DNA of 55,142 bases from a virus. Lineage: Duplodnaviria; Heunggongvirae; Uroviricota; Caudoviricetes. Shown here piece after piece: positions 5,528 to 54,454 of this stretch. The position numbers and the translations under genes are program-made. The stretch lies in the IMG/VR virus record IMGVR_UViG_2711768053_000019; one strand, written 5' to 3'. Numbering within the stretch: the stretch's first letter is position 1; the number at the start of each line of letters is the position of its first letter. The notes under the pieces were generated by a model. That model did not search any database and was not told the origin of the DNA. It saw nothing but the letters and a program-made list of their open reading frames with translations.

Positions 5528-5601
5528 AGATGATTGGTTAAGAGCGAGGGTAATGGGGAATGAAAAATCGCTTTACCTAATGCAAGGGTGCGAGCATTTT
5601 C

Positions 5602-18860: not shown

Positions 18861-19094
18861 TCAATCTGGTCTAACCTGTTTTCTGAGCAATTCAGTAATG
18901 TCACTCTTTTCTTTGTTTGCTTCAGGCGAAACTCTTTTTTCTGAGCACAGTCTCCGGCGGCAGGCTTCAATGACCCAGGCTGAGAAATTCCCAGACCCTT
19001 TTTGCTCAAGAGCGATGTTAATTTGTTCAATCATTTGGTTAGGAAAGCGGATGTTGCGGGTTGTTGTTCTGCGGGTTCTGTTCTTCGTTGACAT
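18861..19094 (-). CDS. Small putative ribbon-helix-helix DNA-binding protein (77 aa)
   Basis: Basic N-terminus then IRFPNQMIEQINIALEQKGSGNFSAWVIEACRRRL, an RHH-like pattern. Confidence 0.4.
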   Translation of the reverse strand: MSTKNRTRRTTTRNIRFPNQMIEQINIALEQKGSGNFSAWVIEACRRRLCSEKRVSPEANKEKSDITELLRKQVRPD

Positions 19095-20028: not shown

Positions 20029-23009
<2,981 letters not shown>

Positions 23010-23086
23010 AACCCTTGCTGCGTCTGGAATGTCGTTTTCCATGCTTTTGATGACCGTTCATCACCCTTCCAGTTTTTCGCGGTTTT

Positions 23087-23140
23087 GTGTATTGCAATGT
23101 GTATTGCAAATTGGCGATCGGGATGGGTGTGTATTGCAAA
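23087..23140 (+). repeat. Three direct copies of TGTGTATTGCAA near element left end (candidate integrase arm-type sites)
   Basis: Copies at 23087-23098, 23098-23110, 23127-23140; two further copies near right end at 33754-33776. Confidence 0.4.
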
Positions 23141-23157
23141 TCTCTTGAGGGCTTTTA

Positions 23158-24399
23158 ATGGCTATTGAAAACAAACTCAGTGACAAACTGTTAAAGAGTC
23201 TTGTCGGAAAACGGCAGGACAAACAAAAAACAATAGCGGATGGGCGCGGGTTGTCTGTGCGTGTAAGCATGGTTGGGGGGATCAGCTTTGTTTTTTACTA
23301 TCGTCTTGGTGGCAGGGAATCCCCTCCGGTATGGCTTACACTTGGTCGCTATCCTGACATGTCTCTTGCAACGGCCAGGCGCATGCGTGATCAGTGCCGT
23401 GAATGGCTGGCTGAAAATCTGGACCCCCGCAGGCAAATAAAACTTGCTGCCGAAAAAACTATGCAACCAGTGACCGTAAGGGATGCGCTGTTTTACTGGT
23501 ACGACAATCACGCCACAACAGCCAGAAAAGAGCATGAATATTTAATAAAACGATTTGAAAAGCATATCTTCCCCTATATCGGTGATATGGCTATAGAACA
23601 GTGCAAATTACACACATGGCTTACCGTCTTTGACAGGATCAAAAAAAATGCGCCTGTTATGTCTGGTGCAATTTTTCTTGATATCAAACAGGCGTTGCGT
23701 TTTTGTCGCGTCAGGCAATACATCGCGTGCGATCCCTTTGGAGATATTAACGTAAGTTATGTCGGGCGCTCATCCGGTATAAGGGATCGCGTTCTTAATA
23801 TCAATGAAACCGCTGATGTATGGTCTTATGCTTACGGTAATAATTTGCTAACTCTGTCATCAATATATAACCGAAGAATAATGGTTATCTGCCTGGTGTT
23901 TGGTTGCCGACAGCAGGAGGCGAGGCTATCCACCTGGGACGAATGGGATTTAAAAAACTGGGTATGGACAGTCCCAAAAGAGCACAGCAAAAACAAGGAG
24001 GCTATAGTAAGGCCTGTTCCTGACGGAATAAAACAATGGATCGTTAATCTTTACGCAGAAACAAAAAATCGCGGTTATGTTGTCGGTTGTGCTTTGCAAA
24101 GGGCGACAATAACAGGGGCTGCAAACAGAATATGCAGGCGTCTTGGTCATGATACTAATGGCTTGTGGTGCATACATGATTTCAGGCGCACATTTTCCAC
24201 TACGCTTAATGATATGGGGGCGGATCCTTATATTGTCGAACTTCTTTTAGGTCATAAAGTGAAAGGGGTTGCTGGTGTTTACAATAAAAGCAGGCATATA
24301 AAGAAAAAACTTGAGGTGCTTAATATGTGGGTTAATTACCTTAATACGATAGCAGGATTTAACAACAACGTTATCGAGCTTAATAAAGAGGTGGTGTGA
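23158..24399 (+). CDS. int: Tyrosine integrase of the inserted element (413 aa)
   Basis: C-terminal HDFRRTFSTTL...LLGH...VYNKSR (R-H-R-Y-type catalytic pattern); N-terminal arm-binding-like domain. Confidence 0.85.
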   Translation: MAIENKLSDKLLKSLVGKRQDKQKTIADGRGLSVRVSMVGGISFVFYYRLGGRESPPVWLTLGRYPDMSLATARRMRDQCREWLAENLDPRRQIKLAAEKTMQPVTVRDALFYWYDNHATTARKEHEYLIKRFEKHIFPYIGDMAIEQCKLHTWLTVFDRIKKNAPVMSGAIFLDIKQALRFCRVRQYIACDPFGDINVSYVGRSSGIRDRVLNINETADVWSYAYGNNLLTLSSIYNRRIMVICLVFGCRQQEARLSTWDEWDLKNWVWTVPKEHSKNKEAIVRPVPDGIKQWIVNLYAETKNRGYVVGCALQRATITGAANRICRRLGHDTNGLWCIHDFRRTFSTTLNDMGADPYIVELLLGHKVKGVAGVYNKSRHIKKKLEVLNMWVNYLNTIAGFNNNVIELNKEVV

Positions 24400-24400
24400 T

Positions 24401-24658
24401 ATGGCAATTTATTCTCTTGTTGATGAAAACGATTTGCGCACAATGAAGGACATTGATCGGTTCATTCGTGAAAAAGAGTGCATAGCACTTACCACGCTGG
24501 CAAACTCAACACGCTGGAAAATGGAGCAGGCAGGTAAATTCCCGCGACGTATCAAGATCGGTGAACGTGCTGCAGGGTATCGACTTTCAGAGGTTCAGGC
24601 ATGGATCCGTGGTGAGTGGCATCCTGGATGGAAACCTGGAAAAACAAAACAGCAATAA
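24401..24658 (+). CDS. alpA: AlpA-family transcriptional regulator / excisionase-like (85 aa)
   Basis: HTH LTTLANSTRWKMEQAGKFPRRIKIGERAAGYRLSEVQAWI; directly follows int in same orientation. Confidence 0.7.
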   Translation: MAIYSLVDENDLRTMKDIDRFIREKECIALTTLANSTRWKMEQAGKFPRRIKIGERAAGYRLSEVQAWIRGEWHPGWKPGKTKQQ

Positions 24659-24671
24659 CCAGTAAATAATG

Positions 24672-24694
24672 CCCCTCATCACGAGGGGTTTTTT
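24672..24694 (+). terminator. Intrinsic terminator after alpA
   Basis: CCCCTC-ATCAC-GAGGGG followed by TTTTTTGTC. Confidence 0.55.
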
Positions 24695-24714
24695 GTCTAT
24701 AAGGTAAAAACGCG

Positions 24715-25293
24715 ATGAATAAAAATATTGCCGTGACGGGCAAGGGGTACGCTCGTCCAGTGAAAAAATTCTGCGATATTCGTGATCTCGTCGTTCTGCG
24801 CTTTGATAGTGTGAACGTTCGTGTGGTGTATCTGAACGGCGATCCGTGGTTTGTTGCAAAAGATGTTTGTGCTGCGCTGGAACTAACCAATTCGCGTACG
24901 GCGTTGCAGATGCTTGATGATGATGAAAAGGGAGTAAATTTAACTTACACCCCAGGAGGAAATCAGAATATGAGAATTATCTCTGAGTCAGGTTTCTACA
25001 AACTAATAGCCCGCAGCCGCAAAGCAACGACGCCTGGCACATTTGCTCATCGTTTCAGTAACTGGGTATTCAGAAATGTGATACCAGGTATCAGAAAAAC
25101 GGGGACTTATGGTATCCCGTGGGGTGCATTACAGGATTTTTCCCGCCGTAAAGAGCAATATCAAATAAGTGCCAGCGAGAAGGGGAGGGAGCTACAGGCA
25201 TGTAAGCGCAAAAAGCGTGAGCTGGAGGAAGAAGAAAAAACGCTGATACGTGAATATCAGCCTGAGTTTTACTTTGGTAACCGCATTCAGTGA
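24715..25293 (+). CDS. Bro-N domain protein (antirepressor-like), 192 aa
   Basis: FVAKDVCAALELTNSRTALQMLDDDEKG pattern typical of Bro-N domains. Confidence 0.6.
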   Translation: MNKNIAVTGKGYARPVKKFCDIRDLVVLRFDSVNVRVVYLNGDPWFVAKDVCAALELTNSRTALQMLDDDEKGVNLTYTPGGNQNMRIISESGFYKLIARSRKATTPGTFAHRFSNWVFRNVIPGIRKTGTYGIPWGALQDFSRRKEQYQISASEKGRELQACKRKKRELEEEEKTLIREYQPEFYFGNRIQ

Positions 25294-25323
25294 CAAAACA
25301 AAGGCGACCGCAAAAGGGTCGCC
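25294..25323 (-). terminator. Terminator for minus-strand regulatory operon of the element
   Basis: GGCGACC-GCAAAAG-GGTCGCC hairpin followed on minus strand by TTTGTTTTGT. Confidence 0.45.
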
Positions 25324-25389
25324 AGTGGGAACAAGGGAAAACAAAAGCATCACCAACAATGCCACATTTGCGGCTGGTGGGCAATGTGA

Positions 25390-25569
25390 TCAGTCAGATT
25401 TGGTTCGTTCCAAGGTTTGCAACGAGAGCTTTTTCCTGTGCTCTTTAAGGAATTTCTCAAGAGCAAACGAACAAGGTGCGAATCTTTCTGATTCATGTTC
25501 ATGCGCTATATTTTTGCGTCGTCTCTTACGAGTTGGTGATGGTGTTTTGGTTGATTCTGTGTCGCTCAT
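25390..25569 (-). CDS. Small basic protein (59 aa) downstream of RHH gene
   Basis: Hand-translated MSDTESTKTPSPTRKRRRKNIAHEHESERFAPCSFALEKFLKEHRKKLSLQTLERTKSD; AGGACA SD; below ORF-track cut-off. Confidence 0.35.
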   Translation of the reverse strand: MSDTESTKTPSPTRKRRRKNIAHEHESERFAPCSFALEKFLKEHRKKLSLQTLERTKSD

Positions 25570-25626
25570 GGTGCTGTCCTGTAAAGCAATGCGCCTGCGT
25601 TCCTCAAACTATGGCGCTGATATTGG

Positions 25627-25932
25627 CTATTCATGCTCTTTGACCTTGCGTCGCTGGAGTTCTTCACGCGCGACGGTGACGAGTTGCCCGATCTCCTCGG
25701 CTGCTTTGATGCCGATTTGTTCGACCTTAGCCAGGGCATCCAGTGACGACACAAGGGGATTTTCTCCGCTGCCTTCTGCTTGGCGGCGGGCTATTTCTCC
25801 GCGCATGGCGGTTACGATAAATCCGGCATTGCTTTCACCGTCCAGCTTAACGGATTCCATCCCTTGCATAACATCTAGTGGGACTCTGACAGTTGTCAGT
25901 TGTGATTTTGCGTTTTTGTTAGCCGTTGCCAT
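25627..25932 (-). CDS. Putative ribbon-helix-helix repressor of the element (101 aa)
   Basis: TTVRVPLDVMQGMESVKLDGESNAGFIVTAMRGEI fits RHH beta-strand/helix pattern; divergent from replication/packaging operon. Confidence 0.45.
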   Translation of the reverse strand: MATANKNAKSQLTTVRVPLDVMQGMESVKLDGESNAGFIVTAMRGEIARRQAEGSGENPLVSSLDALAKVEQIGIKAAEEIGQLVTVAREELQRRKVKEHE

Positions 25933-25993
25933 TTCTGAAACTCCTAATCATCGGTGTGTTTCAGTATACACAAAAAAAGAAATACAAAAAGCC

Positions 25994-26031
25994 TTGACGT
26001 GTGTTTCATGCGCTCATAACATGAAACACAC
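25994..26031 (+). promoter_or_regulatory. Promoter/operator of element rightward operon: TTGACG -35 with 12-bp perfect inverted repeat
   Basis: GTGTGTTTCATG-cgctcataa-CATGAAACACAC (25999-26031) overlapping TTGACG (25994-25999) and TAACAT-like -10. Confidence 0.45.
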
Positions 26032-26122
26032 CGAAAGGATTGTTGAAATACAAAGAGCAACGCCCCGCAGTGCTGGGAACACATACGGGGCGTCTAACCA
26101 ACAACGTAAACTAGGAGCCGTT

Positions 26123-26320
26123 ATGGTTGCTGTAAATCATATACCACACCTTGTACACACACAAACGGCCTTTGTGTGGCGTTTTCTGGCACTGAGTGCC
26201 GGAGAATCTCAAATCATCCACGTAACCGCCTGGACGGAACGCGAAGCGCGTAGCCGTTGCCCGTCCGGTTGTGTTGCTGTATTCGCTGCAAAAATCCGCC
26301 AGGGAGTGAGTCATGCTTAA
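26123..26320 (+). CDS. Small protein (65 aa), first gene of element rightward operon
   Basis: AGGAG SD 5 nt before ATG; stop overlaps next start (ATGCTTAA). Confidence 0.45.
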   Translation: MVAVNHIPHLVHTQTAFVWRFLALSAGESQIIHVTAWTEREARSRCPSGCVAVFAAKIRQGVSHA

Positions 26321-26498
26321 AACCTTCCGTGTATTTGCCCGAGCTGTTAACCCAATAGGCCACACAATTGGTATCGCTCAGAATGTGAAGGCTGTTAATG
26401 TTCAGACGGCTATTGCTGCGGTGAGAAGCGAATCATCAGAATATGGCTTATCACAAGTCATTATTTCAGCAGTGTATGAATTAAAAGAGGTGCATTAA
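26313..26498 (+). CDS. Small hypothetical protein (61 aa)
   Basis: Translationally coupled string of small ORFs. Confidence 0.4.
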   Translation: MLKTFRVFARAVNPIGHTIGIAQNVKAVNVQTAIAAVRSESSEYGLSQVIISAVYELKEVH

Positions 26499-26689
26499 TG
26501 CAGGAAATTACATTACACGAAGCCGCTGAACGTGCGCACCAGACAGAAATTATTTGCCGCCTTCTTGAGGTATACCCGAACAAAATTACAGATGCTGATA
26601 TATCCGCACTGGCGAGCCTACTGGCGCGTCTTTCGGGAAGTGTCGCTAGTTTTTTGATTGAGGAAGAAAGTAAGCTGGTGGGGGATTAA
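26498..26689 (+). CDS. Small hypothetical protein (63 aa)
   Basis: Coupled start/stop overlap. Confidence 0.4.
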   Translation: MQEITLHEAAERAHQTEIICRLLEVYPNKITDADISALASLLARLSGSVASFLIEEESKLVGD

Positions 26690-26911
26690 ATGAATACAGA
26701 ACGGGAAGTCTTTTTTAAATTGTTAGCATGTGCAGAAAGTTCATTAACTTTAAATAATTCAGCAAAAGCAATATTAAATATGTGGCTTGATTGCATAAAT
26801 GACAATGAAGATGCAAATATTGCTTATGGCCTGTTGTCACTTATTGATGAATCAGCAGAAAAACTCAATGACGCAATAAATAGTGCCCTGCTATCAAATA
26901 AGTCGAGTTAA
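26690..26911 (+). CDS. Small hypothetical protein (73 aa)
   Basis: ATG immediately after previous stop; AT-rich. Confidence 0.4.
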   Translation: MNTEREVFFKLLACAESSLTLNNSAKAILNMWLDCINDNEDANIAYGLLSLIDESAEKLNDAINSALLSNKSS

Positions 26912-26928
26912 GTCGAGGAATAAATAAT

Positions 26929-27228
26929 ATGGAAATGAAAAATTCTGGCTTTATTGCCAGCGGCCCCGCTCGAACTGAATTTATGAACGGCGATATTTAC
27001 CGCGATAAATACGGCGGCACGGTAACGATTAAAGGCGTGGCAGAACGGCGCATCACTTACCGCCGTGAGGGGTATAGCTATGACTGCGTGATGCCTGTTT
27101 ATCAGTTCCGGCGTGATTTTTCCCTGGTATATGCCGCACCCCGCAGTAAGCCCATCAGCAGGGAAAAAGCGTGGGGAAATATCCAGAAAATGAAAACCAT
27201 GATTAACGGATTCAGAGGTAAAAAATGA
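26929..27228 (+). CDS. Hypothetical protein (99 aa)
   Basis: ATGA overlap with primase gene start. Confidence 0.45.
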   Translation: MEMKNSGFIASGPARTEFMNGDIYRDKYGGTVTIKGVAERRITYRREGYSYDCVMPVYQFRRDFSLVYAAPRSKPISREKAWGNIQKMKTMINGFRGKK

Positions 27229-28979
27229 AACTGGCACCGAACGTAAAACAGCAGTCACGCGGCATAAAACACAAAGGAACAGAAGTCATTATTTTTGCGG
27301 GTAGTGATGCCTGGGCACACGCGAAACAATGGCAGGAACATGATGCGCGTATGGCCGGAGATAATGAGCCTCCTGTGTGGCTTGGGGAGCAGCAGCTATC
27401 CGAACTGGATAATCTGCAAATTGTGCCGGAAGGCCGAAAATCAGCACGCATATACAGGGCCGGATATCTTGCGCCTGTAATGATAAAGGCGATTGGTCAG
27501 AAGCTGGCGGCAGCAGGCGTACAGGATGCAAATTTTTATCCTGAGGGTATGCACGGCCAGGAGGTGCAGAACTGGCGCGAATATCTGGCCCGTGAACGCC
27601 AGAATCTTTCTGATGGTCTGGTCATTGAGCTTCCGGTAAAGCAAAAGGCGCAACTTTCGCAGATGGCGGACAGTGAGCGCGCGCAGTTGCTTGCCGATCG
27701 CTTTGATGGCGTTTGCGTACATCCTGAAAGTGAAATCGTTCACGTATGGCGCGGCGGGGTATGGTGTCCGGTCAGCACAATGGAACTTAGCCGCGAAATG
27801 GTGGCGATCTATTCAGAGCACAGGGCCACTTTCAGCAAGCGCGTAATCAATAACGCCGTGGAAGCGTTAAAAGTTATTGCCGAACCAATGGGCGAGCCGT
27901 CTGGCGATTTGCTGCCGTTCGCCAATGGTGCGCTTGACCTGAAAACGGGGGAATTTTCCCCGCACACGCCGGAGGACTGGATCACCACGCACAACGGCAT
28001 TGAGTACACGCCACCAGCACCAGGGGAGAACATCCGCGATAACGCGCCAAACTTTCATAAATGGCTTGAGCACGCAGCCGGAAAAGACCCGCGCAAGATG
28101 ATGCGTATATGTGCCGCGCTGTACATGATTATGGCGAACCGGTACGACTGGCAGATGTTTATTGAGGCCACCGGAGACGGCGGGAGCGGTAAAAGTACAT
28201 TCACACACATAGCCAGCCTTCTGGCAGGGAAACAGAACACGGTAAGCGCTGAAATGACATCGCTTGATGATGCTGGTGGACGTGCGCAGGTTGTCGGGAG
28301 TCGTCTTATCGTCCTGGCTGACCAGCCGAAATATACAGGCGAAGGAACGGGCATCAAGAAAATCACAGGCGGCGACCCCGTGGAAATTAACCCGAAATAT
28401 GAAAAGCGTTTCACGGCGGTAATCAGGGCGGTGGTGCTGGCGACCAACAACAACCCGATGATATTCACCGAACGGGCCGGAGGTGTGGCACGTCGTCGCG
28501 TGATTTTCCGTTTCGACAATATCGTCAGTGAGGCCGAAAAAGACAGGGAGCTACCGGAAAAGATTGCGGCTGAAATCCCCGTTATTATCCGCCGATTGCT
28601 GGCGAACTTTACCGACCCTGAGAAGGCACGGGCTTTACTACTGGAACAGCGTGACGGTGATGAAGCACTGGCAATAAAGCAACAGACGGATCCGGTTATT
28701 GAGTTTTGCCAGTTCCTGAATTTTCTGGAGGAAGCGCGCGGCCTGATGATGGGTGGCGGTGGTGATTCAGTGAAGTACACGACCAGGAACAGCCTTTACC
28801 GCGTCTATCTGGCGTTTATGGCATACGCGGGCAGGAGCAAACCGCTAAACGTGGCTGAGTTCAGCAAGGCCATGAAGCCAGCGGCGAAAGTTTACGGGCA
28901 TGAATATATTACGCGAAAAGTTAAGGGAGTAACGCAGACCAACGCAATTACAACAGACGATTGCGACGCGTTTTTATAA
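27225..28979 (+). CDS. Primase-helicase (P4 alpha / D5-like, P-loop NTPase), 584 aa
   Basis: Walker A GDGGSGKST, Walker B-like LIVLAD; size and position typical of satellite Pri-Rep. Confidence 0.8.
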   Translation: MKLAPNVKQQSRGIKHKGTEVIIFAGSDAWAHAKQWQEHDARMAGDNEPPVWLGEQQLSELDNLQIVPEGRKSARIYRAGYLAPVMIKAIGQKLAAAGVQDANFYPEGMHGQEVQNWREYLARERQNLSDGLVIELPVKQKAQLSQMADSERAQLLADRFDGVCVHPESEIVHVWRGGVWCPVSTMELSREMVAIYSEHRATFSKRVINNAVEALKVIAEPMGEPSGDLLPFANGALDLKTGEFSPHTPEDWITTHNGIEYTPPAPGENIRDNAPNFHKWLEHAAGKDPRKMMRICAALYMIMANRYDWQMFIEATGDGGSGKSTFTHIASLLAGKQNTVSAEMTSLDDAGGRAQVVGSRLIVLADQPKYTGEGTGIKKITGGDPVEINPKYEKRFTAVIRAVVLATNNNPMIFTERAGGVARRRVIFRFDNIVSEAEKDRELPEKIAAEIPVIIRRLLANFTDPEKARALLLEQRDGDEALAIKQQTDPVIEFCQFLNFLEEARGLMMGGGGDSVKYTTRNSLYRVYLAFMAYAGRSKPLNVAEFSKAMKPAAKVYGHEYITRKVKGVTQTNAITTDDCDAFL

Positions 28980-28992
28980 TTTTTTGTAAAAG

Positions 28993-29216
28993 CCATCTAC
29001 CCCATCTATCTGAACAAAATAAACTCATATTATTCAACATGATAAGTGGGTATAGGGCTAGGTAGAAGGCTAATAAAAGCTCTCTACCTCTTCTACCTGA
29101 TTTTATCAGTTTCAGGTAGCAGGGTAGACGGCAGGTAGAGGAGTCAAAAAGTTATCTACCCGCTGAAAGCCGCGCCATTACTGACATGATGAGCATTCGG
29201 GTAGATGGGTAGAGGG
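28993..29216 (+). repeat. Element replication-origin candidate: at least nine GGTAG(A)/CTACC iterons
   Basis: GGTAGAAGG, CTCTACC, TCTACCTG, CAGGTAGCAGGGTAGACGGCAGGTAGAGG, TCTACCC, GGGTAGATGGGTAGAGG immediately downstream of primase-helicase. Confidence 0.5.
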
Positions 29217-29263
29217 GGGGAGGCACAACTAAAAACTTTTTAAACGAGGGGGGGTGAAAATAA

Positions 29264-29578
29264 ATGCGCATACATAAAAATCACTTAACAAACATGCCAG
29301 CCGAAAACATGAATCAGGGGCGACAAATGACCAAAATTCGCAGAGACAGAACACAGGCAAAATATAAAGCGTTAGACATGACAGAGCTTTCCTTAAAGGT
29401 GGCAATCAAAGCGATAGACCACCACACACGGGCAGGATACGCGAAGGAACATCCCGACCTGATAAGCGCATTCATGACCACAGCAGCGGCAAACTTTGCC
29501 ACGCTGACAGAACGGGAGATTGCCGAAGCGGAACAGGTGACAACCATCAATGTTAAAACCGGAGAGCAGACAGCATGA
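29264..29578 (+). CDS. Hypothetical protein (104 aa)
   Basis: G-rich SD upstream; coupled to next gene. Confidence 0.4.
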   Translation: MRIHKNHLTNMPAENMNQGRQMTKIRRDRTQAKYKALDMTELSLKVAIKAIDHHTRAGYAKEHPDLISAFMTTAAANFATLTEREIAEAEQVTTINVKTGEQTA

Positions 29579-29997
29579 CAGCACAGATAGCGGCTTACGG
29601 GCGGCTGGTGGCTGACCCGCAGTTAAAGACCACCAGCAAAGGGACACAAATGGCGATGGCGAGTATGGCGGTTCCCCTGCCGTGCAGCCAGGCAGATGAC
29701 GGAACGGCGACGATGTGGTTATCCGTCCTGGCGTTTGGCAGACAGGCCGACGCACTGGCAAAACACCACAAAGGCGAACTGGTGAGCGTGGCGGGTAACA
29801 TGCAGGTAAGCCAGTGGACAGGCCAGAACGGCGAAACGCGGCGGGGCTGGCAGGTTATCGCAGACAGCGTAATCAGTGCGCGAACGGCGCGACCGGGCGG
29901 CAAAAAAGGCCAGCAGGGGCAGGCCACTGACGCACTGAACAGGGCAAAACAACAGTCGGGGAATGATGATCCGTACGGCGATAATATACCGTTTTAA
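29575..29997 (+). CDS. SSB-like protein (140 aa)
   Basis: Acidic C-terminal tail ending DDPYGDNIPF as in SSB C-termini; OB-fold-like core. Confidence 0.55.
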   Translation: MTAQIAAYGRLVADPQLKTTSKGTQMAMASMAVPLPCSQADDGTATMWLSVLAFGRQADALAKHHKGELVSVAGNMQVSQWTGQNGETRRGWQVIADSVISARTARPGGKKGQQGQATDALNRAKQQSGNDDPYGDNIPF

Positions 29998-30208
29998 ATT
30001 CTACAAACAAAAAGATGCCGGAAAAAAATAGATTTTCCGGCATGCTACATAAATCCCGACCAAAGGAAGTAAATACATTAACACGAATTATCAGCACTGA
30101 AGTTGTTACGGCATATTTTATACAACATTGCACTTGGTTGCATGTATTCGCATAGCAGACATCGGTAATAGAATATATTCATAATTATTTGTAATGAATG
30201 TAAAGAGG

Positions 30209-31255
30209 ATGAGTATGGTTGATTTATATTCGCCTACACAGCTTGTGCAGGTGGCTAATGCTGAAGATGTGCAAAAAAAATTAAATGCGTTGTTTACCAG
30301 TTTGTTTTTCACTCGCTCGGTAATGTTTGAATCGAGAGACATTATTCTTGATACGATCGACGATCCAAATATCCCGATCGCGGCGTTTTGCTCTCCTATG
30401 GTGGGCAGTAAAGTTTCACGAGATGAGGGATACGAATCAAAAACAATTCGTCCAGGTTATATGAAGCCGAAAAGCAGCATTGATCCAAATAAGTTAGCTG
30501 TGCGCCCTGCTGGTGTGTCACCTGAGCAATACAATGCTTTTGGGGCGCGTAATATTAAAGTTAAACAGGCGATTGTAAATCAGGCTAAAGCTATTCGTGC
30601 ACGTATTGAATGGCTTGCTGTTCAGGCAATCACAACGGGGAAAAATATCATTGAGGGCGATGGTATTGAACGTTATGAGCTGGACTGGAATATAAAACCA
30701 CAAAATATCATCACTCAGTCTGGCGGTACTGAGTGGTCAGGTAAGGATAAAGAAACTTTTGATCCAAATGATGATATTGAGAGCTACGCAGAATTTAGTG
30801 AGGGCGTCACTAATATCATCATTATGGGTGGTAATGTATGGAAGAAATACCGTTCATTCAGAGCGATAAAAGAGGCTTTGGATACCCGTCGTGGTTCTAA
30901 TTCCGAACTGGAAACGGCCCTTAAAGACCTTGGTGATTCGGTGAGTTTTAAAGGGTATATGGGCGATGTTGCGATTGTTGTTTACAGCGGGCGTTATACC
31001 GACGAGGACGGAACAGAAAAACATTTCCTTGATCCTGATTTGATGGTGCTTGGCAATACGGCTCTTCAGGGGATTGTCGCCTATGGCGGTATTCAGGATC
31101 CGGAGCTAATCCGAATGGGGCTGACTAAAGCCGAACTTGCACCGAAAAACTATATTGTGCCTGGTGATCCGGCTATTGAATATGTGCAGACACATTCAGC
31201 ACCACAGCCAATACCGGCCCGCATCAATCGTTTTGTTACCGTTCGCATTGGCTAA
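30209..31255 (+). CDS. Major capsid protein paralogue (lambda E-like, divergent), about 349 aa
   Basis: Shares blocks with prophage E (36325-37350): ITQSGGTEWS, DTRRGSNSELETA, DVAIVVYSG; start 30209 or 30215. Confidence 0.75.
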   Translation: MSMVDLYSPTQLVQVANAEDVQKKLNALFTSLFFTRSVMFESRDIILDTIDDPNIPIAAFCSPMVGSKVSRDEGYESKTIRPGYMKPKSSIDPNKLAVRPAGVSPEQYNAFGARNIKVKQAIVNQAKAIRARIEWLAVQAITTGKNIIEGDGIERYELDWNIKPQNIITQSGGTEWSGKDKETFDPNDDIESYAEFSEGVTNIIIMGGNVWKKYRSFRAIKEALDTRRGSNSELETALKDLGDSVSFKGYMGDVAIVVYSGRYTDEDGTEKHFLDPDLMVLGNTALQGIVAYGGIQDPELIRMGLTKAELAPKNYIVPGDPAIEYVQTHSAPQPIPARINRFVTVRIG

Positions 31256-31264
31256 GGGGGAGCA

Positions 31265-31606
31265 ATGGCTACTCATTACACTGAACTCATGGCTGGCACT
31301 GAAGCACTGGTGACTACGCTGGGGATATTTTCAGCTAATAAAGGGGTAATTCCTGCATTTACGCCACTGATGCAGGAAGATGCAACAGGTGCACTGGTGG
31401 TATGGGATGGTTCGAGCGTAGGTAAAGCGGTTTATGTTTCCGCTGTACAAATCGACACAGCGAAAAAAACACAGGCACAGGTTTATAAGACAGGTGTTTT
31501 AAATGTTGATGCTCTGAACTGGCCTGAGTCTGTAAAAGAACTGTCGGCAAAGGTTGCCGCGTTTGTTGGCTCAGGTATTTCTGTTCAGCCGCTGGCTCGT
31601 GTGTAA
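31265..31606 (+). CDS. Head decoration protein paralogue (lambda D-like, divergent), 113 aa
   Basis: Same length and position as D after E; VVWDGSS..., YKTGVL pattern parallels prophage D ([10 protein letters not shown]..., YKSGTF). Confidence 0.6.
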   Translation: MATHYTELMAGTEALVTTLGIFSANKGVIPAFTPLMQEDATGALVVWDGSSVGKAVYVSAVQIDTAKKTQAQVYKTGVLNVDALNWPESVKELSAKVAAFVGSGISVQPLARV

Positions 31607-31617
31607 AGGGGGATACA

Positions 31618-32001
31618 ATGCAGAATCATTACAATGACCTTAAGCCAATTGCCGAAATGATGTATCCGGATCCAGCAGTAGAGGAATTAAAGGCTATTGC
31701 TGACAAAATGCGTTTAAGTGAACGCCTTGTTGATATGAATCAGGTGATGGAACTTACTACCCTTAGCCGTCGCACATTGCTAAACCTTGAGGCTCGCGGA
31801 GAGTTCCCCGAACGCGTACAGGTTACGGAAGGGCGTAAGGCCTGGTATTTAAGTGAAGTGATCGACTGGATAAACAATATTCCTCGATCTTCTGAATATT
31901 GCCGCGTACCTGTCCCAAAAAAGCCAGATGCGGCGCTATGCCTCAAGATTGAGCGTGTACGTCGCAATGCACGGGATGGTCGCTATAAGTTGATTGGTTG
32001 A
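31618..32001 (+). CDS. AlpA/MerR-like HTH protein adjacent to element cos (127 aa)
   Basis: LTTLSRRTLLNLEARGEFPERVQVTEGRKAWYLSEVIDWI HTH; ends 25 bp before cos-like site. Confidence 0.55.
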   Translation: MQNHYNDLKPIAEMMYPDPAVEELKAIADKMRLSERLVDMNQVMELTTLSRRTLLNLEARGEFPERVQVTEGRKAWYLSEVIDWINNIPRSSEYCRVPVPKKPDAALCLKIERVRRNARDGRYKLIG

Positions 32002-32025
32002 TGAAATTAGGGCCCGTTCTGGCTG

Positions 32026-32091
32026 GCGGGTCCTTTCCGGCGATCCGGTAGGCTACGGGGCGGCGACCTCGCGGGTTTTCGCTATTTATGA
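32026..32091 (+). other. cos: Second cos site belonging to the element (cosN GGGCGGCGACCT at 32058-32069)
   Basis: 21 bp (32026-32046) and 34 bp (32058-32091) identical to prophage cos 19262-19282 and 19294-19327; flanking sequence on both sides differs. Confidence 0.8.
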
Positions 32092-32202
32092 GCCTTTTTC
32101 GGGTGCTGGTGGTGGTTTTGTTGTTCGCTCTATCTCTATGAATAAAAAGGAAAAGATAAAGCCAATATACCAACCTGAAACATTACTTAAGTGGGGATAT
32201 TG

Positions 32203-32745
32203 ATGAAATCGCACCTGATGAACAAAAAAAACATGGCGCAAAGCTGCCGTGTAAGTGCGACAGCGTTCGACAAGTGGGGAGTGACTCCCGTTGAACGTAA
32301 AGGCCGCGAGGCGTTTTATGATGTTGCCAGCGTAATAGACAATCGGGTTAGCAATGCAATTAACCAGATTACAGACGACAAAGGCGAGATTGATGATGAT
32401 GAACTCCTACGAGTCAGGATCAGATTGCTGACAGCACAGGCAGAGGCGCAGGAGCTTAAAAACGAGCGCGAACGCGGCGACGTTATTGATACAGCGTTTT
32501 GTATATACGTGCTTTCAAAATTGGCGAGTCAGATTTCTTCAATCATGGACAGCCTGCCGCTTGCCATGACAAGGAAGTTTCCCGACATGAAGCCGTCTAT
32601 GCTGGATGGACTGAAAAAAGAAGTTATCAGAGCCTGTAACGCATGCGCAAAACTTGACGAAAACATACCGCTGATGCTGTCCGATTATCTGATGGAAACT
32701 GCCGGAAACGTACCGGATAAGTTGCAGCCGAATAAAGATAAGTAA
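32203..32745 (+). CDS. Terminase small subunit paralogue (Nu1-like, divergent), about 180 aa
   Basis: Alignable with prophage Nu1: AQAEAQELKNERERGDVIDTAFCIYVLSKLASQISSIMDSLPLAMTRKFP versus AQADAQELKNARDSAEVVETAFCTFVLSRIAGEIASILDGLPLSVQRRFP; directly downstream of element cos. Confidence 0.75.
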   Translation: MKSHLMNKKNMAQSCRVSATAFDKWGVTPVERKGREAFYDVASVIDNRVSNAINQITDDKGEIDDDELLRVRIRLLTAQAEAQELKNERERGDVIDTAFCIYVLSKLASQISSIMDSLPLAMTRKFPDMKPSMLDGLKKEVIRACNACAKLDENIPLMLSDYLMETAGNVPDKLQPNKDK

Positions 32746-32756
32746 CGTAGTACGCT

Positions 32757-33038
32757 ATGACTGAATCCGAAATACTGCGATTAATCCGCCGTGCTTGTGG
32801 AATCAGCAAGCAGCATGACGAACAGGCCACGCAGCCGGACAGCGTGACCGCAGATAATTATGTGCGTGTAGTGGCTGAGGTGATGCGCCGTGACGGTATT
32901 GAGCTTAACGGCGTGGATATGCGCAACATACGAACAAGAGTCCTTGAGTTGCTGGCATATCGTCGCCGTTCTCAACAACGGAGGGAGAGCGCGAAAAATA
33001 CTTACCAGTGGAAGAAGCCGGAACGATTGCGGCGGTAA
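32757..33038 (+). CDS. Hypothetical protein (93 aa)
   Basis: Last ORF of element before noncoding repeat region. Confidence 0.4.
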   Translation: MTESEILRLIRRACGISKQHDEQATQPDSVTADNYVRVVAEVMRRDGIELNGVDMRNIRTRVLELLAYRRRSQQRRESAKNTYQWKKPERLRR

Positions 33039-33055
33039 CTTGCTGATATTCCCGA

Positions 33056-33440
33056 TAACGCAAAATTGCGCTGGCTGACTTGTTGCATTGCAAAAAGTTA
33101 AGCAGGAAGGCACGGCCTGTAAGATGGGATGCAGTAAGTAGTTCAAGGCTACCTTGTGCTGGCACGCACAGTTAAGCCGTCGGTGCTGGATATCCCCCAC
33201 TGGGGGAAAAGCTGGCTACATCCCTCACATCTGAGGACTGATAACGCGACATTGCGCTGGCTGGCAAAGTGCAAAATTGCACGATGGCCTAACCCATTGA
33301 TTATTTCGAAAACCTGCAATGCAGGAAATCGGGGAAGTAAGCCTAAGCTATTAATTGTTTCGAAAACCCCCATTGGGGGATGTCGGGAAAGTAAGACTAA
33401 CCCATTGATTCTTCCACAATCCTCAATTTGAGGAGGCCGG
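33056..33440 (+). repeat. Noncoding cluster of direct repeats and short palindromes at element right end
   Basis: Three units at 54-bp period each with a 13-bp palindrome (CCTGCAATGCAGG 33313-33325, CCCCCATTGGGGG 33367-33379, CCTCAATTTGAGG 33421-33433); ATAACGC.A.ATTGCGCTGGCTG duplicated at 33056 and 33241. Confidence 0.5.
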
Positions 33441-33853
33441 AACGTCTACATAGCTGCATCGCCGTAATGATGATTCAGCCCACCAGCCAAATCAGCACAG
33501 CAACGACAGAATAGCCCGACACAGAAAAACCACGAATATGGGGTTTTTGTTATGACATGGTCATGATGACCACTCATACAAAACAGGTAAAGCCCACCAG
33601 CCTGATTAAAGGTTAACCGGAAAAAAGCCAGGTATCCAATCTCGATATGGGGATCCCTATATCGACATTAACGCCCACTAAAACTGTGCATATATGCATA
33701 GAAAAAGCATCCACCAGCTTTATGACGGATGCCGCTCATCTTATAAATAATCGTGTATTGCAGTGTGTATTGCGACTCCTTTAAACGATAGGTCTGAGCA
33801 TTCGTAATGTACTGTTTTTAAATTTTATTTTTTCCTGTCTTTTCATAAAGGCG

Positions 33854-34627
33854 ATGTATGCCGCCACCATTGAGAGTGAGCTGGATACGCAGTCAGCGAT
33901 GGATTTTATTCTGGGCGCGAACAGTCAGGAGCAGCGGGAAAGGCTGACCGGCTGGATTGGTGAAATTGCCGCGTATTACGCCGCAGCGCCGGTCCGGCTG
34001 GGAGGCGCAAAAGTACCGCACCTGATGCCGGGTGACTCACTGAACCTGCAGACGGCTCAGGATACGGATAACGGCTACTCCGTGTTTGAGCAGTCACTGC
34101 TGCGGTATATCGCTGCCGGGCTGGGTGTCTCGTATGAGCAGCTTTCCCGGAATTACGCCCAGATGAGCTACTCCACGGCACGGGCCAGTGCGAACGAGTC
34201 GTGGGCGTACTTTATGGGGCGGCGAAAATTCGTCGCATCCCGTCAGGCGAGCCAGATGTTTCTGTGCTGGCTGGAAGAGGCCATCGTTCGCCGCGTGGTG
34301 ACGTTACCTTCAAAAGCGCGCTTCAGTTTTCAGGAAGCCCGCAGTGCCTGGGGGAACTGCGACTGGATAGGCTCCGGTCGTATGGCCATCGATGGTCTGA
34401 AAGAAGTTCAGGAAGCGGTGATGCTGATAGAAGCCGGACTGAGTACCTACGAGAAAGAGTGCGCAAAACGCGGTGACGACTATCAGGAAATTTTTGTCCA
34501 GCAGGTCCGTGAAACGATGGAGCGCCGTGCAGCCGGTCTTAAACCGCCCGCCTGGGCGGCTGCAGCATTTGAATCCGGGCTGCGACAATCAACAGAGGAG
34601 GAGAAGAGTGACAGCAGAGCTGCGTAA
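33854..34627 (+). pseudogene. B: Portal protein B, 3' portion (257 codons), resumes exactly at ...YAATIESELD
   Basis: MYAATIESELDTQSAMDFILGANSQEQRERLTGWIGEIAAYY... continues lambda B to its C-terminus by recall; in frame with 5' portion if element excised. Confidence 0.85.
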
Positions 34628-53878: not shown

Positions 53879-54454
53879 ATGGATTTCAGAATGAGTGAAC
53901 AACCACGGACCATAACAATTTATAATCTGCTGGCCGGAACTAATGAATTTATTGGTGAAGGTGACGCATACATTCCGCCTCATACAGGTCTGCCAGCAAA
54001 CAGTACCGATATTGCACCGCCAGATATTCCGGCTGGTTTCGTGGCTGTTTTCAACAGTGATGAGTCATCGTGGCATCTCGTTGAAGATCATCGGGGTAAA
54101 ACGGTTTATGACGTGGCTTCCGGCGACGCGTTATTTATTTCTGAACTCGGCTCATTACCGGAAAATGTCACCTGGTTATCCCCGGAAGGGGAGTTTCAGA
54201 AGTGGAACGGCACAGCCTGGGTGAAGGATACGGAAGCAGAAAAACTGTTCCGGATCCGGGAGGCGGAAGAAACAAAAAACAGCCTGATGCAGGTAGCCAG
54301 TGAGCATATAGCGCCGCTTCAGGATGCTGTGGATCTGGAGATCGCAACGGAGAAAGAAACCTTGTTGCTGGAAGCCTGGAAAAAGTATCGGGTGTTGCTG
54401 AACCGTGTTGATACATCAACTGCACCGGATATTGAATGGCCAGCCCTACCGTAG
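53879..54454 (+). CDS. tfa: Tail fibre assembly protein Tfa, about 191 aa
   Basis: [54 protein letters not shown]... lambda Tfa by recall. Confidence 0.8.

Follow-up and report, generated by a model that had tools for sequence, protein, structure and literature searches.

A probable P4-type control region of a helper-embedded satellite carries a candidate ribbon-helix-helix repressor, matching predicted operators and an antisense open frame

The stretch of DNA analysed here (IMG/VR record IMGVR_UViG_2711768053_000019, Caudoviricetes; 55,142 nt, hereafter the window) carries a lambda-like prophage whose portal gene is interrupted by a satellite element of about 10.9 kb. Downstream of the Bro-N gene of this satellite, a leftward operon of two small genes, ylcI and orf59, which encode proteins of 101 and 59 amino acids (aa), diverges from a rightward operon consisting of an Icd/Kil-family gene, small open reading frames (ORFs), a DUF4222 gene and a D5/P4-type primase gene. 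A promoter-like site overlapped by a perfect inverted repeat lies between the two operons, and a plus-strand frame of 356 codons runs through the whole region (Table 1). An earlier reading made from the letters alone (the sequence-only reading) had described this region as a divergent repressor operon with an operator over the rightward promoter, and all of its coordinates held: the repeat, the promoter element, both minus-strand ORFs and the terminator were found as placed. We consider the region to be the immunity and control region of a helper-embedded satellite of the phage-inducible chromosomal island (PICI) type, built on the plan of P4 immunity, in which a protein repressor and its operators would replace the RNA and would be bypassed by read-through from upstream; the probability of this reading is put at about 0.6.

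Table 1. Features of the control region and of the surrounding satellite, in coordinates of the window.
Feature	Position	Strand	Remarks
Rightward promoter (predicted) of the icd/replication operon	25994-26022	+	-35 TTGACG (25994-25999), 17-nt spacer, -10 TAACAT (26017-26022)
Proximal operator candidate	25999-26031		Inverted repeat GTGTGTTTCATG (25999-26010)-N9-CATGAAACACAC (26020-26031), perfect 12-bp arms
Distal operator half-site (candidate) GTGTGTTTCA	25954-25963		Third copy of the 10-mer; absent from the sequence-only reading
-10-like box for the repressor gene, TATACT	25963-25968 (plus-strand coordinates)	-	Adjoins the distal half-site
ylcI, repressor candidate	25627-25932	-	101 aa; AGGAG upstream of ATG
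orf59, basic protein	25390-25569	-	59 aa; second gene of the operon; AGGA upstream of ATG
Intrinsic terminator of the ylcI-orf59 operon	25323-25303	-	7-pair stem, 6 GC pairs, tail TTTGTTTTGT
Long reading frame	25250-26320	+	356 codons; begins within the Bro-N gene, 44 nt before the gene ends
Icd/Kil-family gene	26123-26320	+	65 aa; AGGAG 5 nt upstream of ATG; first gene of the rightward operon
Conserved leader hairpin	26061-26092	+	Nearly invariant UCUAACCA comes next, to 26100
Small hairpin AACG...CGTT	26103-26122	+	Shine-Dalgarno AGGAG (26113-26117) in the loop
Terminator-like hairpin	24671-24689	+	Directly 3' of alpA; 7 pairs, T-run tail TTTTTTGTCT
int	23158-24399	+	Satellite gene
alpA	24401-24658	+	Satellite gene
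Bro-N gene	24715-25293	+	Satellite gene
P4/D5-type primase	27225-28979	+	Satellite gene
Further satellite genes		+	Small ORFs, DUF4222 gene, single-stranded DNA-binding protein, major capsid, decoration, small terminase (terS)
Portal fragments	22128-22961 and 33844-34626		Flank the satellite (element about 22962-33843)

The product of ylcI, which had been proposed to be ribbon-helix-helix-like, matched the YlcI/YnfO family model NF041551 over residues 9-50 (63.3 bits, cut-off 30; E 1.6e-17), and RefSeq assigns the identical protein to the YlcI/YnfO family. More than 200 relatives of it were found across Enterobacterales. A confident structure model (predicted local distance difference test score, pLDDT, 83.7) contains an N-terminal ribbon-helix-helix domain at residues ~9-50, so that, as modelled, the protein has the strand-helix-helix fold of about 45 residues found in the Arc/MetJ/CopG DNA-binding proteins. 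Long forms such as this one carry a conserved C-terminal helical insert (ENPLVSSLDALAKVEQIGIKAAEEIGQLV, residues ~52-93; 25627-25780, minus strand) that is absent in the short forms of 59-65 aa and weakly resembles the Hef helix-hairpin-helix motif (1x2i, E 0.027). The operon ends in the terminator ascribed to it, on the minus strand; on the plus strand the same hairpin has no T-run (tail AGTGGGAAC) and plus-strand transcription can therefore pass it.

Both minus-strand ORFs of the proposed operon are present, and their frames had the lowest ratio of nonsynonymous to synonymous polymorphism (pN/pS) among the six frames (0.32 for ylcI, 0.32-0.37 for orf59). This result bears on the possibility that the long plus-strand ORF is the only real gene of the region, the minus-strand ORFs being artefacts and the repeats replication iterons or AlpA sites. 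The plus-strand frame is indeed conserved as open, and in the loci of Escherichia coli O157-type elements the NCBI Prokaryotic Genome Annotation Pipeline (PGAP) annotates it rather than the minus-strand genes. Against this stand the curated family match, the confident ribbon-helix-helix model and the low pN/pS of the minus-strand product, as well as the occurrence of family relatives in other contexts, one of them in the helper prophage itself (18861-19094). Since the repeated word also follows neither the replication protein nor AlpA, as detailed below, a plus-strand-only locus is most improbable.

The predicted rightward promoter, located 100 nt upstream of the Icd/Kil gene, gave 9 of 12 matches in the promoter scan; no other plus-strand site of the region resembled a promoter. 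The 12-bp perfect inverted repeat with a 9-nt spacer that had been reported beside TTGACG is present and brackets the -10 element. Its arms, about 22 bp apart centre to centre, span the promoter spacer and the stretch from the -10 element to the start. The window has two perfect inverted repeats whose arms reach 12 bp or more, this one included, compared with 0.05 in Markov-random windows. The conserved core of the proximal operator candidate is GTGTGTTTC-N15-GAAACACAC. The 10-mer GTGTGTTTCA was found in three copies (at 25954, at 25999 and, reverse-complemented, at 26022), all inside 78 bp, with ~0.1 occurrences expected across the whole window. The -10-like box that adjoins the outlying copy is kept as TATACT, TATAAT or TATATT in related loci, as read from their sequences.

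The region was compared with 14 diverged E. coli loci, 11 loci from other genera and the island EcCICFT073 (loci are numbered with the prefix L); Escherichia, Xenorhabdus, Photorhabdus, Enterobacter, Serratia and others were represented. Some part of the 1,037-bp query region matched in 1875 of 5426 complete E. coli genomes. The common layout was alpA, optionally a Bro/Ant gene, the leftward pair of ribbon-helix-helix gene and small ORF, promoter, leader, icd-like gene, small ORFs, DUF4222 gene and primase or helicase gene. The promoter elements were kept as -35 TTGAC(A/G), a spacer of 17 or 18 nt and -10 TAAnnT, with 10 of 12 matches in EcCICFT073. Across about 25 loci, three sites lay at about -41, +5 and +28 from the -35 element, the first of them present in most loci, and each locus had its own word at these sites. 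The word was GTGTGTTTC in the window, in L002 and in the Xenorhabdus and Photorhabdus loci, TGAATACCA in L004 and L005, TGTGATTC in L008, GTGCGATTCA in L009 and L015, TGTGCGCACA in L011, GTGTTCAACAC in L012 and L013, and GTGGAATCCAG in L026.

The operator word tracked the N-terminal ~50 aa of the repressor candidate. In the Xenorhabdus and Photorhabdus loci, which share the repressor N-domain of the window, the GTGTGTTTC core was retained and the bases between the sites differed. Three other candidates for the operator-binding factor were rejected: one and the same AlpA (WP_000953272) occurs with four different words, identical orf59 proteins occur with five, and L004, which has a primase, shares its word with L005, which has RepA. 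The proposal of an operator overlapping the promoter was thus strengthened, as related loci keep the repeats in place and change their sequence with the N-terminal domain of the repressor, and an operator-like action of the inverted repeat over the rightward promoter is supported by these comparisons. Repeats that stay fixed in position and are replaced in sequence together with the neighbouring DNA-binding domain appear as the signature of an immunity region. The 101-aa protein may bind its cognate sites, which are ~22 and 45 bp apart and vary with the N-domain, as a dimer or tetramer. In the O157-type loci, unannotated ORFs with weak, sub-threshold Arc- or HicB-like Pfam matches occupy the same position and have repeats of their own. 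These Arc-/HicB-like ORFs lie on the minus strand at 1750-1923 in L007 (57 aa) and at 1750-1941 in L014 (63 aa), where RefSeq annotates the long plus-strand ORF instead and labels it either hypothetical protein or partial Icd-like pseudogene.

The orf59 protein contains the sequence TRKRRRK followed by the conserved motif F-A-L-E-x-F-L. It has 29 homologous clusters, nearly all from Escherichia and named hypothetical, and matched phrog_21027 (E 5e-15); divergent proteins of 69 and 75 aa in the same position of other loci share P..FALE.F with it. The gene is left unannotated by PGAP in the identical locus L001 and is annotated in EcCICFT073. No toxin or defence family was matched by orf59, and a PADLOC search of the region's proteins was negative throughout. 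These properties, together with the pairing of the two minus-strand genes, are relevant to a further explanation, namely a type II toxin-antitoxin module that stabilises the satellite, with a ribbon-helix-helix antitoxin, a small toxin and repeats that serve only autoregulation. Besides lacking a recognisable toxin, such a module should be a cognate pair, whereas identical orf59 proteins are found with long YlcI, short YlcI and Arc-like proteins, and in L004 TBLASTN detected no orf59 homologue and the annotation shows no small gene downstream. Of the three sites, moreover, two lie on the divergent promoter and not on that of the operon itself. No toxin co-varying with its antitoxin could be recognised among these sequences, and a toxin-antitoxin function is accordingly regarded as improbable. 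The N-terminus of orf59 (TRKRRRKNIAHE) is arginine-rich. Arginine-rich stretches of lambdoid N proteins bind RNA hairpins, and by analogy orf59 could act on the conserved leader hairpin described below.

The sequence-only reading had dismissed the 356-codon plus-strand ORF as spurious, a judgement that was not borne out. The ORF passes antisense to orf59 and ylcI, continues through the operators, the promoter and the leader, and has as its terminal part the Icd/Kil gene, whose product matched NF033153 (E 1.2e-17) and is annotated in RefSeq as an Icd-like protein; by this match the last 65 codons are certainly not spurious. The frame as a whole is probably not spurious either. In 20 of 26 loci, the ~190-nt non-coding interval between the divergent start codons had no stop in the icd frame, whereas both remaining plus frames were interrupted there by 1-10 stops each (shuffle probability per locus 0.01-0.12). 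The length of the interval was 1 mod 3 in 20 of 26, and in 20 of 26 the frame was open for 204-411 codons upstream of the icd start codon. In the loci checked, it began at, just inside or shortly past the end of the preceding plus-strand gene, and in EcCICFT073 it comprises 433 codons with a Bro-N-like N-terminus. The openness of the frame across promoter and operator DNA thus appears to be maintained by selection. The product itself consists of low-complexity sequence in which no Pfam domain was found. Both strands appear to be used, the minus strand for its products and the plus strand, most likely, for being translated. A GC-rich hairpin with a weak T-tail (25765-25790, plus strand) lies antisense within ylcI and, should it act as a weak terminator, would be suppressed by ribosomes on the long frame.

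The behaviour of this frame is also what separates the P4-type interpretation from a simple divergent switch, in which a ribbon-helix-helix repressor would be inactivated by a helper protein, as Stl is in the Staphylococcus aureus pathogenicity islands (SaPIs), and the long ORF would be a meaningless shadow. The evidence for repressor and operators is identical under both explanations, a frame that shares third positions with an antisense gene is the one most prone to being open by chance, and low-complexity sequence without a domain is what a shadow would offer. Chance openness fits poorly with the stop-free promoter and operator DNA just described, its conserved length modulo 3 and the many stops in the other plus frames. 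In L007, furthermore, the frame is open although the antisense gene is an unrelated, weakly Arc-like ORF. The nested layout of P4 is alike and, according to the summary in PMC10111431, has experimental support, and over-expression of AlpA alone induces EcCICFT073, which carries the module (PMC6092414). A simple divergent switch is therefore considered unlikely, although less so than the two explanations discussed above.

The interpretation as a P4-type immunity region draws on a shared architecture. In P4, whose immunity region has the promoters PLE and PLL, eta (8812-8168) overlaps the end of an alpA homologue, kil is the terminal part of eta, the C4 RNA (8507-8420) lies just upstream of kil, and the 65-aa Kil matched NF033153 with E 1.6e-21. 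The window has the same gene order, an alpA/vis homologue followed by a long ORF that overlaps, in this case, the end of the Bro gene. The promoter lies inside this ORF, a structured leader separates the promoter from the kil ribosome-binding site, and the 65-aa Kil/Icd gene forms the terminal part of the ORF and is followed by small ORFs and a P4-type primase gene. As judged by sequence, the window shows two features of the P4 type: an internal promoter followed first by a Kil/Icd gene of ~65 aa, and the nesting of this gene at the end of a longer ORF that starts upstream of that promoter, where the alpA homologue or Bro gene ends. The immunity factor differs. In P4 it is the CI RNA of the C4 family, with seqA/seqC targets, accompanied by isrK and c4-a1b1 elements; no C4, isrK or c4-a1b1 match was detected in the window up to E 10. 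The satellite has instead, inside the long ORF and antisense to it, a divergent ribbon-helix-helix gene, the gene of a small basic protein and DNA operators that are specific to each type. The helpers differ too, being lambdoid here and P2 for P4. In P4, transcripts that start at the upstream late promoter escape termination through the translation of eta (Forti et al., 1999, as summarised in PMC10111431), and the conserved open frame suggests a comparable prevention of Rho-dependent termination by eta-/kil-like translation here.

In the quiescent state, the 101-aa product of the leftward operon would bind three cognate sites. Two of them, forming the inverted repeat, would place the protein over the rightward promoter, on its spacer and on the stretch from the -10 element to the start, and the third, ~45 bp away, would lie over the start of the repressor's own promoter. 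Binding would thereby shut off the Icd/Kil-like gene, the small ORFs, the DUF4222 protein and the primase, and would autoregulate the repressor. Upon activation, transcription from upstream, starting at the alpA promoter or, in this embedded copy, as late transcription of the helper, would read rightward through the whole region. Ribosomes would follow the polymerase along the long open frame, by which Rho-dependent termination would be prevented. Since such read-through would be independent of the repressed promoter and would run head-on into the repressor operon, it would bypass and weaken repression. This activation step is proposed by analogy with P4 PLL/eta and with the AlpA-dependent induction of EcCICFT073.

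Whether the region itself is the switch that senses induction of the helper, as had been suggested, is doubtful. Induction of EcCICFT073 needs AlpA, expression of alpA depends on the helper, and over-expression of AlpA alone triggers replication (PMC6092414). Because EcCICFT073 carries the same module, the helper signal more likely enters upstream of the region, at alpA or via late transcription of the helper. The latter is a possible entry because the element is embedded, co-oriented, in the portal gene (PMC10111431). Derepression by a helper protein is a less likely possibility. Basal transcription into bro and the long ORF would be limited by the terminator-like hairpin 3' of alpA except where the polymerase is termination-resistant, and the hairpin would favour such a polymerase for read-through. 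No comparably strong terminator-like site was found 3' of alpA in EcCICFT073 (L030).

Several observations weigh against a P4-type immunity region. Binding, repression and transcription are all deduced from sequence. The repressor promoter has no convincing -35 element, and the promoter scan called no minus-strand promoter there. As the repressor gene and the operators are adjacent, their co-inheritance alone is to be expected, and the argument rests for that reason on the repeats staying repeats while their sequence changes. The antisense open frame had a pN/pS of 0.44-0.50 and its third codon positions coincide with those of the repressor gene; the strands are only weakly separated, and pN/pS alone cannot settle the coding strand. 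The start of the long frame is uncertain, a GTG at 25250 with no clear Shine-Dalgarno sequence, and 6 of the 26 loci break the single frame. Four of these (L005, L014, L017 and L018) bridge the gap by a different, overlapping plus-strand frame, whereas in L010 and L015 every plus frame meets a stop in the intergenic region. BLASTP of the Icd-like protein against P4 Kil gave no alignment, so that their link rests on the shared NCBIfam model only; in TBLASTN against phage records, the Icd-like protein had a single match, to a satellite-like record, and matched neither P4 nor P1. Finally, the hairpin 3' of alpA could block alpA-derived read-through in this copy.

The leader between the promoter and the Icd/Kil gene contains two hairpins. 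The conserved leader hairpin, aligned from 22 sequences, has 12 pairs (85.6% paired), 5 of which showed compensatory changes. Its covariation score was 0.170 compared with 0.041 in shuffles (0 of 500 reached it) and at most 0.047 when the structure was slid along the alignment; the RNAalifold consensus recovered 7 pairs only. In the small hairpin that holds the Shine-Dalgarno sequence in its loop, the stems vary among loci and stay complementary (CGTTA/TAACG, TGTAA/TTACA, CGATA/TATCG and CGTAA/TTACG; compared by eye, unscored). A recognisable C4/CI RNA was rejected for the leader, though its position equals that of the P4 CI RNA: searching the window and the region against Rfam up to E 10 revealed no C4, isrK, c4-a1b1 or other family at the leader; P4 and L015 scored clearly. 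The sequence UCUAACCAAC 3' of the leader hairpin resembles boxA, an element of the form CGCUCUU(U)AACAA, and the order of hairpin and then boxA is that of the rrn antiterminators. The helper has CGCTCTTAACCAA at 5533-5545 on the minus strand. A role of the leader as an antitermination or NusB/S10 site is speculative. In L010, an element from a chicken E. coli, two copies of the leader hairpin (at 1159 and 1907), an extra icd-like start and a broken long frame were found; it is probably a rearranged or decaying copy.

Similarities to other immunity systems are more limited. In P22 immI, the ribbon-helix-helix repressors Mnt and Arc act at the divergent Pmnt and Pant promoters and control an antirepressor gene. 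It shares with the satellite a small ribbon-helix-helix repressor gene divergent from the repressed promoter and an operator, some two helical turns long, placed over the core promoter. It differs in that the gene under control is not a replication operon and in that it is not known to have a nested long ORF or an Icd/Kil gene, and beyond the fold no sequence relationship was detectable. The immI regions of P1 and P7 (c4 RNA, icd, ant) use C4 antisense RNA. There as well, an Icd-family gene is translated first in the regulated operon, and its translation is linked to transcription farther downstream; the C4 RNA, by contrast, was not found in the window. The mosaic relative L015 does have C4/isrK cassettes beside icd-like genes: at 2242-2908, two C4 RNA genes, isrK-like and c4-a1b1 elements and an ash fragment lie between duplicated icd-like genes, downstream of a YlcI-type switch. 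This mixture indicates that protein-based and RNA-based immunity cassettes coexist or recombine in these loci. With the SaPIs, the satellite shares a master repressor gene divergent from the replication/packaging operon. Stl proteins, however, are helix-turn-helix repressors of larger size, and helper proteins inactivate them, whereas AlpA-driven activation is documented for the related EcCICFT073.

Among the Gram-negative PICIs, EcCICFT073 carries the same module of ylcI, small ORF and icd. For these islands the repressor has been called "unclear" and AlpA is regarded as the activator; the contrast of this picture, an activator and no clear repressor, with Gram-positive satellites has been called a mystery (PMC6092414). 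In the helper-embedded 11capE, the non-hypothetical genes were described as unidirectional, and RNA immunity was the sole kind mentioned (PMC10111431). A divergent repressor, operator types and a conserved open frame were not found in the published PICI descriptions searched. Ribbon-helix-helix repressors are known, as are divergent switches and P4 immunity; in the literature searched, the coverage of which was incomplete, Gram-negative PICIs were not described as combining these with many specificity types and with an antisense frame that is conserved as open. We tentatively propose, at somewhat less than even odds, that enterobacterial PICI-type satellites including EcCICFT073 share an undescribed multi-type immunity, in which a ribbon-helix-helix repressor with matching operators is encoded antisense inside a frame kept open only for ribosome-escorted read-through from alpA or helper late genes, which would flip the switch, and in which the leader hairpin and UCUAACCA provide a further site of RNA-level control in place of the P4 CI RNA. 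The module supplies Gram-negative PICIs with a repressor candidate and type-specific predicted operators and would tie these islands mechanistically to P4 immunity. The specificity types could govern the coexistence of several satellites in one cell. The frame, apparently conserved for being translated and not for its product, is an unusual form of coding. The region also poses a problem for annotation, since pipelines call plus- or minus-strand genes variably and miss the small ribbon-helix-helix ORFs in O157-type elements.

The satellite as a whole belongs to a known kind of element, the helper-embedded PICIs (Tommasini, Mageeney and Williams, 2023; PMC10111431): it has int-alpA, a Bro gene and replication and late zones, is inserted in the portal gene and lies within, and in the same orientation as, the late genes of the prophage. 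The helper encodes a YlcI/YnfO-family protein of its own (77 aa, minus strand), between the lysis genes and the small terminase gene and antisense to the late operon. Its N-terminus is similar to the satellite repressor type of L011, and cross-talk or heterodimers of this protein with the satellite repressor are conceivable. A full-length match to Rfam IS009 (218 bits) was found at 54222-54420 on the plus strand, in the tail-fibre region of the prophage.

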